Virus record (IMG/VR): IMGVR_UViG_3300010163_001518
Coordinates: 1 to 64,000 of that record
Strand: one strand, 5' to 3'
Source: a virus
Taxonomy: Duplodnaviria; Caudoviricetes
DNA: 64,000 nucleotides
Positions within the stretch are counted from its first letter, which is position 1. Each line of letters opens with the position of its first letter. The notes beneath the pieces are model-generated. The model ran no database searches. It was given only the letters and a program-made list of their open reading frames with translations, and had not been told where the DNA came from. Shown piece by piece: positions 1 to 34,794 of this stretch. Position numbers and translations under genes: made by a program.

Positions 1-974
1 GAGTTGGTGCGGGTGAACGTCCACGTCCGGGTCGCCGTTCCGCCCTGCCCGTCCGTGACGACGACCTTGACCGTGTGCTTGCCGAGGCTCAATTCATCGA
101 CCGGGACGAGGATGCTATTTTTCGATTTTCGCGTCGGGGCGAACGACTTCGTCGTTCGCCCATCGAGCGACTCCGTCGCCGTCAAGACGTCGCCGGAGTC
201 GGAGTCGTCCACGGTGTACTCTATTGTAAAATTGCTGTTCTTATCGCCCAAATCGCGATCTGTGTCAGAGATCAGAGGGTCAGTGTTCAGGACTTCAAGG
301 ACGGGGCGGAAACCGACAAGGACGTTCCGAGAGGACGCCGAAGAGTTGAGCCAGTAGCGGGCCGAACCGTACCCACGGTACGCCCGGAGCGCCGCGTTCG
401 CGGCGTAGGTCTCCTGACACCAGGAATAGACATAGAGCCAGTTCCAGAACTGATTATGAGCGGATGTCACGTCGGTCGCGTTTTGGCTCGTGTCGAGGTC
501 GGAGGATAGCGGGGCCGGGAGCCCGGTGATGACCTCCTCACGGGTGATGAACCTGTCCCACTCGTTATTGGTGGGCGTTCCGCCCGCGTAGGCGTCCGAG
601 GTGTTGCGGTAGTTGCTGCCGCCCGTGAGGAGGCGACATTTGTATTTTGCCCCGTCGATGGTGACGGTCTTCCCCGTGACGTAGCCCTGCCCGTTGAGGT
701 CGTCCCACGAGACAGAGACGAGGATGACCCGGTCGCAAATGAGGAGGATTTTGTCGCCGTCCTTGATCTTGTGCCATTGGAGCTTGTTCGCGGCGGCGGC
801 GGGCGTGTCGCCGATGGTGTAGTTCGCCATGCTGCCGGACATCTGCGGGATGTCGCCGTTGCCCGACGCGCCCGTGGGCGTCGAGTCAGGCCGCCACGGC
901 CTGACGGGCCGCTTGAGGATTGTGCCGTTGTTGTAAAACCCGCCGAGCTGCACGGTTCCGAGATATTGCGCCAT
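1..974 (-). CDS. DGR target protein (5' part; runs off window): C-type-lectin-like variable domain followed by an Ig-like domain; probable receptor-binding protein
   Basis: Translated by hand, absent from ORF track. ATG at 974 after GGAG; MAQYLGTVQLGGFYNNG...SWCQETYAANAALRAYRGYGSARYWLNSSASSRNVLVGFRPVLEVLNTDP...LGKHTVKVVVTDGQGGTATRTWTFTRTN, open to position 1. Confidence 0.9.
   Translation of the reverse strand, partial: MAQYLGTVQLGGFYNNGTILKRPVRPWRPDSTPTGASGNGDIPQMSGSMANYTIGDTPAAAANKLQWHKIKDGDKILLICDRVILVSVSWDDLNGQGYVTGKTVTIDGAKYKCRLLTGGSNYRNTSDAYAGGTPTNNEWDRFITREEVITGLPAPLSSDLDTSQNATDVTSAHNQFWNWLYVYSWCQETYAANAALRAYRGYGSARYWLNSSASSRNVLVGFRPVLEVLNTDPLISDTDRDLGDKNSNFTIEYTVDDSDSGDVLTATESLDGRTTKSFAPTRKSKNSILVPVDELSLGKHTVKVVVTDGQGGTATRTWTFTRTN
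302..395 (-). repeat. DGR variable repeat (VR), ending in GC-rich IMH-like GTCGGTTTCCGCCCCG
   Basis: 94-nt ungapped match to 2365-2458 with 14 mismatches, all at TR adenines. Confidence 0.97.
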
Positions 975-2154
975 AAGGGAGCACTCCTTCCACATTGATG
1001 AAGCGGTAGGGCGCGAATATCTTCTTCGCGAGATTGTAGGCGCTCGCCCAGCGGGCAAAGCCGAGCCAGGAGTTGACCTCCTGCACGATCGCCGCCCGCG
1101 TCTTCTTGCCTTCTTTCAGCTTCGCGATCATGGCCTTGATCTTCCGCTTTTCCTTCCGCTTGGACTCGGTTCGGAGCTCGAGATGGGTCGCCTTGATCTT
1201 GTAGCCGTAGGCGTTCACGCCCTGCCGCACATAGAATATTTTGGTCTTGCTGTTGAGGTCGAGATGCAGCCGTTCCTTGATGAACTGCCTGATCTTAGCA
1301 AGCCACTCCCTCGCGGTCTCTTTGTTCGGCGCGATTATGACGACGTCGTCGGCGTAGCGCGTGTAGAGCTTCGCTCCGAGGAAGCGGATGCAGTATTGAT
1401 CGAGCTCGTTGAGGGTGATGTTTGCGAAGTCCTGGGAGCTGACGTTCCCGAGTGGGACGCCCGTCTCTCCCTCCGGGCTCGAGTCGATCACTTTGCAAAG
1501 AAGCCGATAGAAGCGGAGGAGGTCTTCGTAGAGCTCCGGGTGCTTCTTCTTTAGCTTCTTGAACCGCTTCGCGATGAGCTTCTTGAGAAGTTGGCGGTCG
1601 ATTGAGTAGAAGAACTTCTTGACGTCGATCTTTATGACGGCGGCATCGTCGCCCCACTTCATGCGGGCGACTCTCATGTCATGCTGCACGTTGAACGCGG
1701 CCCGGATGGGCCCCTTCCCGTAAAGACAGGCGAAGGAGCGGTCGACGAAGACGGGGCGGAAAATATCCTGTAGGGCCTCGTGGATGTCGACTTGTACGAT
1801 CTTGTCCCGGAGCTGCGGGATGTGGAGGCTCCGCTCCTTCGGCTCCGTGATCGTCTTGTGACGATACGGGCCGGGCTTGTATTCCTTCGTCTTCGAGTCG
1901 GTGCTCGGCCTGGGCCCTATCCGTTTGAGCTCCCGCCATAGTTCGACATTGTTGACTTCGGAGAGGAGGTCGTAGTTGACCGCCTCCCGCGTGTATTTCC
2001 TTTGACCCCGGAGCGCGGTCTTGTAGCCGAGCTCGACCATGTCCCACCCGATGATCTGCTCGTAGGGGCGGAGGGGCTTGATTGGCGGGGTCTCGGGGTG
2101 CTTGACCTTTTTCGAGGTCTTCACTAAAATGGGGTACTTCGTCATGCGTGGCAT
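886..2154 (-). CDS. DGR reverse transcriptase
   Basis: 422 aa; GVPLGNVSSQDFAN and RYADD motifs, IKIDVKKFFYSID; adjacent to TR and avd. Confidence 0.96.
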   Translation of the reverse strand: MPRMTKYPILVKTSKKVKHPETPPIKPLRPYEQIIGWDMVELGYKTALRGQRKYTREAVNYDLLSEVNNVELWRELKRIGPRPSTDSKTKEYKPGPYRHKTITEPKERSLHIPQLRDKIVQVDIHEALQDIFRPVFVDRSFACLYGKGPIRAAFNVQHDMRVARMKWGDDAAVIKIDVKKFFYSIDRQLLKKLIAKRFKKLKKKHPELYEDLLRFYRLLCKVIDSSPEGETGVPLGNVSSQDFANITLNELDQYCIRFLGAKLYTRYADDVVIIAPNKETAREWLAKIRQFIKERLHLDLNSKTKIFYVRQGVNAYGYKIKATHLELRTESKRKEKRKIKAMIAKLKEGKKTRAAIVQEVNSWLGFARWASAYNLAKKIFAPYRFINVEGVLPYGAISRNRAARRVLQQRHNPQAARQAVAA

Positions 2155-2498
2155 CCTTTCCAGTTAGAACGGCTTGGCACTACAGACGCGGACTTCTGTC
2201 CACATTGTAGACGTCGGCTCCGCCTCCCCATACGAAGGGGCGGGCAGGGCTTAGTCACTGTTTTTACGCCGTCATAGACAAGGCGAAGGATTACCTCTCC
2301 CTTGAAGTATAACAAGGACGCGCACTTGAAGCCGTAGCCGCAAATGACGCAAAAACCTACAAGGCGGGGCGGAAACCGACATTGACGTTCCGATTGGACG
2401 CCGAATTGTTGTTCCAGTTGCGGGCCGAATTGTACCCACGGTTCGCCCGGTTCGCCGCTCATCCAGAGATAACCCTACATAGGCGGATACTTTTTTAT
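2155..2498 (-). ncRNA. DGR RNA region (leader, TR, structured spacer) between avd and RT
   Basis: Non-coding interval containing TR; hairpins at 2180-2210 and 2220-2243. Confidence 0.7.
2365..2458 (-). repeat. DGR template repeat (TR)
   Basis: In the VR frame reads AANRANRGYNSARNWNNNSASNRNVNVGFRP with 10 AAY codons; 21 adenines. Confidence 0.97.
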
Positions 2499-2868
2499 TC
2501 AATTCCTCGGGGGCGGTGGATTGATGAAATACTTCTGCAAGCCTCCGATAATGCGCCCCAGTTCGTTGAGCTTCCCTTGCATCTCGAGGAGCTTCTTTTG
2601 CGTGATGTACTTCTGCGTCCGGGGCGACTCCAAAGAGCACGAGGAGGAGGGTCTTCTCGGCGTCCGCCTCGTCGAGCCATTCAAGCCGTCTTTTGACGAC
2701 CTTGAGATTGTTCACCATGACGGTGGCCCGGATGAGCTTATAGCACGATTGCTTGATCTCCTGCGACAGGGAAAACTTTTCGGCCTGGGGGAAGTTCTTT
2801 AGCAAGGGGTAGACGTCCTTCTCGAGGAAGATTTCAGCCTTCTTTTGAAGGATTGACGGCTCTGCCAT
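2499..2868 (-). pseudogene. avd: Accessory variability determinant Avd, with a +1 frameshift in the GGGG run at 2621-2624
   Basis: MAEPSILQKK...LKNFPQAEKFSLSQEIK...LLVLFGVA in one frame, RTQKYITQKK...ELGRIIGGLQK in another; removing one base gives a 122-aa ORF. Confidence 0.85.
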
Positions 2869-3151
2869 CGTATAAGCACCTCGCATTTCTTATGCGAGCG
2901 ATCTCCGTGATGTCCCCGAAGAACTCGAAGCCGTAGTCGGTGAGGCTTGCCTTTGCGGGCTCTCCCGTTGTGGTGCTGTGCCCTTCAATGGTGAGGTCGG
3001 CCTCTCCTTCGAGAGTGAGACCGCTCTCGGTTTGTAGGGCGAGCTTGTTGTCGGGCCGGGCCCGGCATCCTGCACACGCGGGACGAAGCTCACCGAAAAA
3101 GTTCCCGAGTATGCAGCTTGCTTCTTTTCGGGTGCAAGCGACCCTATACAT
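2834..3151 (-). CDS. Hypothetical protein (Cys-rich N-terminus) overlapping avd start
   Basis: MYRVACTRKEASCILG...; start overlaps the upstream stop region. Confidence 0.65.
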   Translation of the reverse strand: MYRVACTRKEASCILGNFFGELRPACAGCRARPDNKLALQTESGLTLEGEADLTIEGHSTTTGEPAKASLTDYGFEFFGDITEIARIRNARCLYDGRAVNPSKEG

Positions 3152-3455
3152 AGATTTTCCGCGCCACGGGGTCATAGACGCCGGAGATGATCGTTACCGA
3201 GTCCACGGAGTCAAAGTTTTTGAGAAAGACGTTGTTTACCATGTTGTTGAGCGTGGCGTCTTTCAAGACCTTGATCTCCTGCTGGGCGTCGGCGATCAAT
3301 CCCTCATGGAGAATGACGGCTTCGCGGTTCATGTAGATGCCGTCGTCCATGTGGTTCATGTTCGTCTGACTCACGGGCGTCCCTTCCTGGATGACCTCCC
3401 CCGTCGCGACATCCTCGACGTGGTCGACCCATCCGATTTTTTCGTAGGATTTCAT
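3144..3455 (-). CDS. Phage tail-associated hypothetical protein
   Basis: 103-aa ORF coupled to neighbours in the baseplate/tail cluster. Confidence 0.7.
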   Translation of the reverse strand: MKSYEKIGWVDHVEDVATGEVIQEGTPVSQTNMNHMDDGIYMNREAVILHEGLIADAQQEIKVLKDATLNNMVNNVFLKNFDSVDSVTIISGVYDPVARKIYV

Positions 3456-3775
3456 TTGACCTGTACCTCCATTTCTTTTTCAAGTATTTTGTATTTGAAG
3501 GCTACATATAGCCCCTTGCTCGGTGGCTTCTCGAAGACTCGGTCGGTCGCCGCGACGACGTCCCCGTCCGTGTCTACGAGCTGAACGTCTCCCACGGTGC
3601 CCGTGACCGTGTCGTCGAAGTAAATGTAGATTTTTACCCCGTCCGCCTCGACGAGACGCCGGAACGGCTCGACCGTCTTCGGCTCGCCGTTGAGTGTATA
3701 GGCCGCATGGTCGATAGAGTCGGCGAAGCGCCGCCCGATCTTCTCAATGCCGACCGCTGTGATTGTCTTGCTCAT
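3452..3775 (-). CDS. Phage tail/baseplate protein
   Basis: MSKTITAVGIEKIG...; overlapping start/stop; beta-rich. Confidence 0.65.
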   Translation of the reverse strand: MSKTITAVGIEKIGRRFADSIDHAAYTLNGEPKTVEPFRRLVEADGVKIYIYFDDTVTGTVGDVQLVDTDGDVVAATDRVFEKPPSKGLYVAFKYKILEKEMEVQVK

Positions 3776-4645: not shown

Positions 4646-5779
4646 TCACTCCCTTCTCACTGTCACGGTGACGGAGCCCAGGGTGATGACCTTGTCCTTG
4701 TCGAGCTTGACGTCCCGGGCCGGGGTGGCGATCTCGACGTTCGTCGAGGCCGTGTAGCCCTCACGAATGGCGTGATTGATGTCGGAGAGCGTGAGCTCGT
4801 AGAACTTGCGGCCCTTGCGGACGGCGAGGAGCTCGGTGAGGATAGAGGCGACCTTGCCCTCGACTTCCTTGTCATCGGAGACGTCGGTCGTTGTGACCGT
4901 GACCTCGATGTCTTGAGGAACGACGACGGAGGACTTCACCAGGATATTATCATACGGCCCGGCGATCTTGTCAACCGCGACCCGGACGGCGTCAAGGAGG
5001 CCCTCGGTGGCCTCGCCCGCCGTGCCTGTCACGATCACGTCGACCGTCCCTTGCCCCCGGGGGTGCTGACAGTCCGCTTGAGCGAACAGAACGCCGGGGA
5101 CGCCCTCCGCTGCGTTGATGAATGTGTCCTCGATGGGCCGGGCCGCGAGCTCCGACCACGAGCGGAGCGCCCGGGTCTTGAGGCCGTCGTCGTCCTCTGT
5201 GTCGCTGCCCTCCCGTGTTATCCAGTCCGGCCCGTTGGTGATCTCGTCCACGCCGTTGAGGAAGGTGAGGCTCCGGGTGATCTGCCCCTCGGGGACGTTG
5301 TACCGGGAGCCCTCCATCTCGGCCTCGACGAGGACGTCGACCGCCCGGGCCCCCTGTTGGAGAACCGCCGCTTCGAGAACGAAGAAGCGGAGCTCCTCGC
5401 CGTTGATGTCCTTCTTCGTCTTGAAGACGTGGCCCTTCTCGATCTTGACCGCGTCGGCCTCGGTGTCTATCCTGGACACGGTGACGAGGCCCCGGGCCTT
5501 CTGCGCCTTCTTGCGCTTTTTGGAGTAGTCCGCCGCCTTGAGGTCGAGCCACACGCCCGAGGCGTGAGTGATGAAGGCGTTGTTCAAAAAGCCCCGGAGG
5601 AATATCTTGAACTCCCTCTCAATGCGGAGGACGATCATGAGCAGCGTGTAGAAGACGCCGCCCGAGTGGAAGTTCGTGACGACGAAGCCTTCCTCCTTTA
5701 GTTCGGTGACGAGCTCGTCCCGGCGCTCCTCGATCTCCGGGAGTGGGAGAACTGCGTCGAGTGTGTTTTTGTCGATCAT
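4646..5779 (-). CDS. Baseplate J/gp47 family protein
   Basis: 377 aa; GSDTEDDDGLKTR, RGQGTVDVIV motifs. Confidence 0.9.
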   Translation of the reverse strand: MIDKNTLDAVLPLPEIEERRDELVTELKEEGFVVTNFHSGGVFYTLLMIVLRIEREFKIFLRGFLNNAFITHASGVWLDLKAADYSKKRKKAQKARGLVTVSRIDTEADAVKIEKGHVFKTKKDINGEELRFFVLEAAVLQQGARAVDVLVEAEMEGSRYNVPEGQITRSLTFLNGVDEITNGPDWITREGSDTEDDDGLKTRALRSWSELAARPIEDTFINAAEGVPGVLFAQADCQHPRGQGTVDVIVTGTAGEATEGLLDAVRVAVDKIAGPYDNILVKSSVVVPQDIEVTVTTTDVSDDKEVEGKVASILTELLAVRKGRKFYELTLSDINHAIREGYTASTNVEIATPARDVKLDKDKVITLGSVTVTVRRE

Positions 5780-34220: not shown

Positions 34221-34259
34221 TTTTTTGCGCCTGTATGATTAAAAGATAAATCATTTCAT

Positions 34260-34363
34260 TGTCCGATTGCTTGAAGCCCCTCGGCGAGCGTTGAGAGCCC
34301 CGAAACCGTTGAAAACAGGGCAATCGGACAATCGGACACGGAAACGATGAAAATGTCCGATTG
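34260..34363. repeat. Four copies of TGTCCGATTG in mixed orientation
   Basis: 34260-34269 (+), 34321-34330 (-), 34329-34338 (-), 34354-34363 (+). Confidence 0.8.
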
Positions 34364-34794
34364 CTCCGGGCCGATTTTCGGGCGCTCGGGGCCCGGCGTC
34401 GTGCCCGTATGCACGGCTCGAGTAACGGCTTGTAACGGCCCCGCCCGGCGCGATCGCGGTGATGGAGGCCCTCAAAACGGCCTCTTTTGGAGTGCCGCCG
34501 TTAATTCCTGCACGTTTTAACGCCCCGTTCGCACACCTCGCCCCCTTGCCTTTTTTGGGGGCGTCTGCTATAATTCGACCATGGGCCGCGAAGCCCGTCC
34601 TCTTGCGTCTGCTGCTGCTGCTGACTTCCGGGACGGGTGGAGCGGCCCTCTTGCCGTTTAGGGCCCTGTTTTCAAGGCTTTCGCGGCTCCGTGGCCTCGC
34701 ACACGTCCAGCGCCGCCGACGCCGTCCTGGGCCTGTCCTGGGCTCCCGAGGGCATGAAAAAAGGACGCCGACCGCGTCGACGCCCCGTCTCAAG

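Follow-up and report, generated by a model that had tools for sequence, protein, structure and literature searches.

The closest described relative of the locus analysed here is found in Faecalibacterium phage FP_Mushu (Mushuvirus mushu; NC_047913). Phage Mushu is a Mu-like gut phage that carries a diversity-generating retroelement (DGR), as a preliminary description of the present DNA had rightly stated (PMC5883640). The phage and its DGR were described in 2018 (PMC5883640) and studied again in 2024 (PMC11792537). Variability of the variable repeat (VR) was observed in reads from Mushu virions (Cornuault et al. 2018; PMC5883640). In the 2024 study, no clear VR signal was obtained for Mushu in some samples, and the signal was weaker and shifted (PMC11792537). 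In the Mushu genome, the genes for Avd (gp50), the reverse transcriptase (gp51) and the target protein (gp52) are followed by two small genes and by the right end of the phage. Retroelements are also carried by other Mu-like phages of Firmicutes such as Bacillus phage BalMu-1 (Toussaint 2013, as cited in PMC5883640). The DGR of Bordetella phage BPP-1 is organized as mtd-avd-TR-brt, TR being the template repeat from which sequence is transferred to VR with changes at adenines. A structured RNA motif, RT-10, lies between TR and the reverse transcriptase gene of BPP-1, and the other RNA motifs of the RT series were guessed to serve other DGRs (Weinberg et al.; PMC5737381). DGR variable proteins are also known from bacteria, among them the lipoprotein TvpA of Treponema denticola (2y3c).

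The stretch of DNA studied here, hereafter the window, corresponds to bases 1-64000 of the 72,670-base IMG/VR record IMGVR_UViG_3300010163_001518, base 1 of the window being base 1 of the contig. PHROG scans identified on its minus strand a MuA-like transposase, a MuB-like protein, a terminase, a portal, a protease, a sheath, a tape measure and baseplate proteins. The transposase and its ATPase are of the Mu type (phrog_310, 3.8e-98; phrog_296, 9.7e-62). When all 54 Mushu proteins were used as tblastn queries, 44 were matched in Mushu order from 34.3 kb down to base 3 of the window, including Gam, GemA, the portal, the MuF-like protein, the protease, the sheath and the baseplate. The synteny spans gp02 to gp52 and, Avd excepted, each of the 44 homologues is a single match in one frame. 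The Mu-like prophage setting proposed in the preliminary description is borne out by these MuA- and MuB-like proteins and by this synteny. Gene content and order thus identify a Mu-like prophage closely related to Faecalibacterium phage Mushu. Homologues of gp53 and gp54 and the right phage end are absent from the record in the same tblastn search, the right end being missing because it would lie beyond the contig start. Circular permutation of the contig was considered and rejected, as the missing C-terminal half of the target protein was matched nowhere else in the contig by tblastn.

A rough blastn sum over this truncated genome gives a nucleotide similarity to Mushu of roughly 65% (about 30.4 kb aligned and about 22.5 kb identical, of about 35-36 kb). 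By ICTV convention, a genus unites viruses with a genome-wide nucleotide similarity of 70% or more. Relatives in the genome collection were found in Oscillospiraceae and allied bacteria (Dysosmobacter, Gemmiger, Butyricicoccus, Acutalibacter). No near-identical prophage was found in this collection, where the best RT match is 87% identical. Look-ups of exact products retrieved no record for the RT, the J protein of the baseplate, the homologue of gp49 or the frameshifted Avd.

The retroelement lies at the tail-gene end of the prophage, where avd, TR, the reverse transcriptase gene (RT) and the target gene follow one another on the minus strand in the order first described (Table 1). Within the first 6 kb, the repeat finder detected a single long direct repeat, namely the gapless 94-nt pair formed by TR and VR, which are 85% identical. 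On the coding (minus) strand, TR counts 21 adenines and 73 other bases. VR agrees with TR at each of the 73 non-A positions and differs from it at 14 of the 21 adenines (seven changed to T, five to C and two to G). The realignment was searched for mismatches at non-A positions and none was found, the A-only differences reported earlier being exact. The probability that 14 random mismatches would all land on the 21 A positions is 6.7e-12. TR shares the reading frame of the target ORF, its variable adenines occupying ten AAY codons and one TAC codon; the earlier estimate of protein diversity, 15^10 x 4, is arithmetically right (about 2.3e12). Both repeats finish in a conserved GTCGGTTTCCGCCCCG and diverge beyond it. 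A hairpin of the BPP-1 kind was not predicted 3' of VR (z 0.79, no better than shuffled sequence). It had been suggested that the rest of the genome be searched for further VRs. This search, conducted with the non-A positions of TR (whole TR and 40-nt pieces) on both strands of the whole 72,670-base contig, returned only TR and the known VR. The element is a genuine DGR of the Mushu type, an identification made with high confidence.

Table 1. Features of the DGR cassette (window positions; all on the minus strand)
Feature	Position	Strand	Evidence and remarks
DGR target gene, first 324 codons	3..974	-	ORF open at its 3' end, cut by the contig start; shares 89 nt with the 3' end of RT
First Ig-like domain (predicted), residues 229-324	3..290	-	Sub-threshold Big_9/Big_13; model; 31he sequence match
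Variable C-type lectin (FGE-like) fold domain (predicted), residues 4-228	291..965	-	AlphaFold2 model and structural matches
Variable repeat (VR)	302..395	-	Target residues 194-224; C-terminal end of the lectin-fold domain, internal to the protein
Reverse transcriptase gene, intact, 422 aa	886..2154	-	RVT_1, phrog_1423, Mushu RT
Structured RNA motif RT-9 (Rfam RF03080)	2250..2348	-	TR-RT spacer, starts 16 nt past TR
Template repeat (TR)	2365..2458	-	94 nt, 21 adenines; a homologous TR occupies this site in all relatives
avd 3' part (last helix), +1 frame	2502..2627	-	Pfam bAvd 78-106 in ORF 2499-2684; NCBIfam 77-104
avd 5' part, residues 1-84, original frame	2617..2868	-	Pfam bAvd 2-77, E 1.7e-17; NCBIfam DivGenRetAVD 4-74
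Four-C run (GGGG on the plus strand) with one extra base, +1 shift	2628..2631	-	Single-base gap in six relatives

The RT product matches the profiles RVT_1 (E 3.8e-16) and phrog_1423 (E 1e-109), and the motifs LGNVSSQ and YADD can be read in its translation. In the spacer between TR and RT, the Rfam motif RT-9 is matched over its full model (1-92) with a score of 87.2 bits versus a gathering score of 46.1. Each of the nine relatives tested has RT-9 at the corresponding position (76-87 bits). Its occurrence in the Mushu-type clade fits the published guess that RT motifs besides RT-10 serve DGRs, and its position alone suggests that RT-9 may be the priming element for cDNA synthesis. An orphan Rfam motif is in this way placed between TR and RT across the whole clade, which is useful to annotators.

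Comparison with related phages documents the transfer of sequence from TR to VR. A-biased mismatches were observed in every relative in which both repeats are present, and identical TRs are paired with different VRs among related phages. The TR of a sibling cassette, L050 (96.9% identical), differs from that of the window at five non-A positions, and the VR of L050 carries the same five. Since these five non-A changes of TR recur in its VR, sequence has flowed from TR to VR after the split between the window and L050. Among 120 close homologues of the target protein, the entropy amounts to 2.92 bits at the ten AAY sites versus 0.30 elsewhere, and all ten sites are among the 14 most variable of the 324 target positions. 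Many related contigs stop at VR or TR, as would be expected of heterogeneous populations.

The cassette had been called complete in the preliminary description, which has to be amended for the target gene as well as for avd. The first base of the contig falls within the target gene, of whose approximately 618 codons only 324 are present in the record. By tblastn, coverage of the target ends at residue 279 of the 574 residues of the Mushu protein; full-length relatives count 618-619 residues. The start of the gene also differs from the existing annotation of Mushu. An exhaustive HMMER search with target residues 45-229, i.e. the first 185 residues from the Mushu-type start at 842, retrieved 1288 cluster representatives, in most of which the domain starts near residue 45-55. 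The 44 residues 5' of the Mushu-type start are conserved in distant homologues (37-64% identity), with the pattern MA.Y.G..KLG.LY....RPTKPWR. Because this N-terminus is conserved, because the ATG at 974 is preceded by GGAAGGAG and because the same N-terminal extension is open in Mushu, the target was taken to start at 974, 44 codons upstream of the Mushu annotation. Mushu-type target genes thus probably start 44 codons earlier than indicated in RefSeq. The additional N-terminal residues would belong to the variable lectin fold, which matters for annotation.

The 324 available target residues were modelled with AlphaFold2 (pLDDT 96.7). With VIA-align, the predicted structure of residues 4-228 is best matched by TvpA of T. 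denticola (2y3c; Z 9.1 over 149 residues, with an rmsd of 3.5) and also matches the FGE-like protein PvdO 5hha (Z 8.7). The variable domain is predicted to adopt a TvpA-like C-type lectin fold, with Ig-like repeats after it. VR is located at the end of the lectin fold yet within the first third of the full protein. This domain was not recognised by Pfam and NCBIfam. In a Foldseek search of the PDB, matches to the Ig-like domain took up the whole output, and TvpA and PvdO surfaced only in the all-against-all VIA search. The model of residues 229-324 matches PKD and Ig domains (Z 8-10). The Big_9 and Big_13 matches of this region are below threshold, and at the sequence level the Ig repeats match a solved chain named 'Tail fiber protein' (31he, 3.8e-10). 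In full-length relatives, more Ig-like repeats are followed by a jelly roll that is conserved at the C-terminus. Structurally, this jelly roll is most similar to phage tail and baseplate proteins, with Z scores (at most 6.7) too weak for tail placement; its BFVD matches provided no useful names.

The target gene comes directly after the baseplate genes. Its Mushu homologue was annotated as a Hoc-like decoration protein and is thought to bind mucus (PMC5883640, PMC11792537). The same Hoc-like label is given by PHROG, possibly from the same source as PMC5883640. The target product is probably a virion-surface binding protein and we lean towards a tail-associated one, the evidence for a tail location being weak. 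Since this tail-associated binding role is only a leaning, the host-range diversification put forward in the preliminary description is one that we infer to be plausible. The further spread of the DGR by replicative transposition, proposed at the same time, is speculative, the 72.7-kb contig holding one VR only.

The second departure from a complete cassette concerns avd, which is split by a one-base insertion, with the Pfam profile positions 2-77 and 78-106 in different frames. The 5' part is 81% identical to residues 1-84 of Mushu Avd, and residues 82-116 of the latter are matched by tblastn in a different frame. The extra C is located in GTCGCCCCGGACG, where all six aligned relatives show a one-base gap. 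Programmed frameshifting was ruled out, as relatives encode Avd in one frame. In phage BPP-1, an intact avd is needed for DGR activity. If the extra C is real, the cassette of the window would be off and its VR would no longer change from the state last reached.

An assembly or sequencing error, under which the cassette would be intact and active like that of its siblings, is possible though unlikely. The three siblings L049, L050 and L051 (99.1%, 96.9% and 97.4% identical, respectively) encode an intact 122-residue Avd. L049 reads CCC at the site, and its alignment with the window over 3068 bases contains no gap other than the one at the extra C. No frameshifted Avd product on record elsewhere and no second assembly with the same frameshift were found in exact-product look-ups. 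Because siblings 97-99% identical are intact and the product is not on record elsewhere, the extra C is either very recent or an error. Its position in a homopolymer is in keeping with an error, but the run consists of just four bases. Moreover, avd is the sole split gene among the 44 Mushu homologues detected by tblastn, and because none of the other 43, which cover about 34 kb, is split, the assembly does not appear to be indel-prone. The existence of independent avd defects in relatives also argues against an error: L035 has a 1-nt deletion, L012 is devoid of nearly all of avd, and avd, TR and the start of RT are deleted in L034 and L038. Approximately 38 other avd copies in the clade are intact.

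In a more far-reaching reading, which we consider rather improbable, the extra C is a real and very recent loss of avd that, added to four other cassettes with independent avd defects in a set of about 43 Mushu-like relatives, would mean that lysogens recurrently lock their DGR, with VR fixed at a successful binding specificity. RT, TR and RT-9 would remain intact, and the cassette could be re-armed by reversion or recombination. The proportion of cassettes with a broken avd in the clade, around one in ten, bears on why DGR activity differs between Mushu samples.

It is very improbable that the C run is a slippage-prone contingency tract switching avd and the DGR on and off. The frameshift does sit in a C run, but this run is of three or four bases, and frequent slippage needs far longer ones. 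The homopolymer is not conserved either, the six aligned relatives reading CGCGG, CAAAG or CCAAG, and the other defective avd copies are broken elsewhere and by other means. Finally, a chance or recombinational duplication beside an unrelated RT, from a retron or a group II intron, finds some echo in NCBIfam, whose models for group II elements and retrons are matched by the RT, but is refuted by the A-specificity of the 14 mismatches, all 14 of them on TR adenines, and by the joint change of TR and VR in relatives, while these NCBIfam scores are far under their cut-offs (120 versus 300 and 69 versus 235, respectively), an Avd homologue lies upstream and VR falls within a TvpA-like lectin fold.

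The genuine Mushu-type DGR most likely works by the mechanism of Bordetella phage BPP-1, to which it is compared by analogy. The avd-TR-RT operon would be transcribed, and the RT together with an Avd pentamer would use the structured spacer RNA, here RT-9, to prime cDNA synthesis on TR. The adenines of TR would be miscopied in the cDNA, which would then replace VR and thereby re-draw ten NNY codons along with one TNC codon. The corresponding residues would be exposed on the ligand-binding face of the N-terminal domain of C-type lectin fold, in a protein of about 618 residues in which Ig-like repeats would follow and a jelly-roll domain would form the end. In the copy carried by the window, the extra C puts the last helix of Avd out of frame.

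Among the known systems, BalMu-1 is a distant relative that shares with the window the status of transposable phage and an RT near the right end (31% identity between the RTs). TvpA resembles the target protein by the position of its variable residues at the C-terminal end of the fold, with 17% sequence identity. In the window protein, however, the fold is at the N-terminus, with Ig-like repeats and a jelly-roll domain after it, whereas TvpA is a lipoprotein of a bacterium. The DGR of BPP-1 has in common with that of the window an Avd homologue, an RT (30% identical to Brt), a lectin-fold target, the adenine-specific transfer from TR to VR and a structured RNA between TR and RT, RT-10 in BPP-1 and RT-9 in the window (PMC5737381). 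Contrary to BPP-1, the target of the window is encoded downstream of RT and not upstream, VR has an internal position in the protein and is not followed by a predicted hairpin, and the phage is a Mu-like myovirus of Firmicutes. Compared to Mushu, TR differs at about 20 of its 94 positions, avd is frameshifted, and the target gene and right end are cut by the contig. The DGR of the window adds nothing new in kind to the Mushu-type DGR already published. Both are organized in the order avd, TR, RT-9 spacer, RT and target, and both follow the baseplate genes towards the right end of a genome of the Mu type. They also agree in the position of VR and in the 3' end of their repeats, with identities of 81% for Avd, 75% for the RT and 82% for the target.

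Loss or disruption of avd recurs among the Mushu-like relatives. The gene is deleted in three Mushu-like cassettes (see table), and in two of these, L012 and L034, the breakpoint is adjoined by a small unrelated gene (MKNDIADILFKY...). A second case of a frameshifted avd, besides that of the window, is found in L035, a phage that is a very near relative of Mushu, where the frame is lost because of a 1-nt deletion at codon 65. The same locus carries a match to a group II intron domain (RF00029), about 1 kb downstream of the target gene.

Features of the window and of loci or contigs (L-numbers) of Mushu-like relatives
Feature	Location	Strand	Remark
avd deletion	L012:4150-4670		
avd deletion	L034 near 4767-4940		TR and RT start also missing
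avd deletion	L038 near 5995		TR and RT start also missing
Frameshifted avd	L035:5293-5648		
RF00029 match	L035:10076-10160		
Contigs ending at VR or TR	L005, L017-L019, L022, L023, L025 (contig ends); L049 (end)		
Three small conserved genes, 102-104 aa	window 2840-3772	minus	homologues of Mushu gp47-gp49
gp52 N-terminal extension, 44 codons	L036:6244-6375 (Mushu NC_047913 record 34243-34374)		open frame upstream of RefSeq start

Many metagenomic contigs of the Mushu-like clade end within VR (target residues 155-190) or exactly at TR, the assembly break to be expected from a hypervariable repeat pair. The homologue search with the variable domain of the DGR target also returned some very long proteins (P0128, P0172 and P0180; 1800-2960 aa) containing 6-12 partial copies of the variable-domain family.

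The gp47-gp49 homologues separate avd from the baseplate genes. No Pfam family covers them, and their PHROG labels ('kinase') look unreliable; a role in tail-fibre assembly, or as adaptors for the DGR target, is possible. Further along the window, GC content and skew shift near 34-36 kb, and the region 35000-64000 is not Mushu-like.

The RefSeq start of gp52, the Mushu DGR target, is probably placed too far downstream, by 44 codons. An ATG preceded by GGAAGGAG begins the open upstream frame, and the residues it encodes, whose conservation extends to distant homologues, form three strands of the lectin fold.
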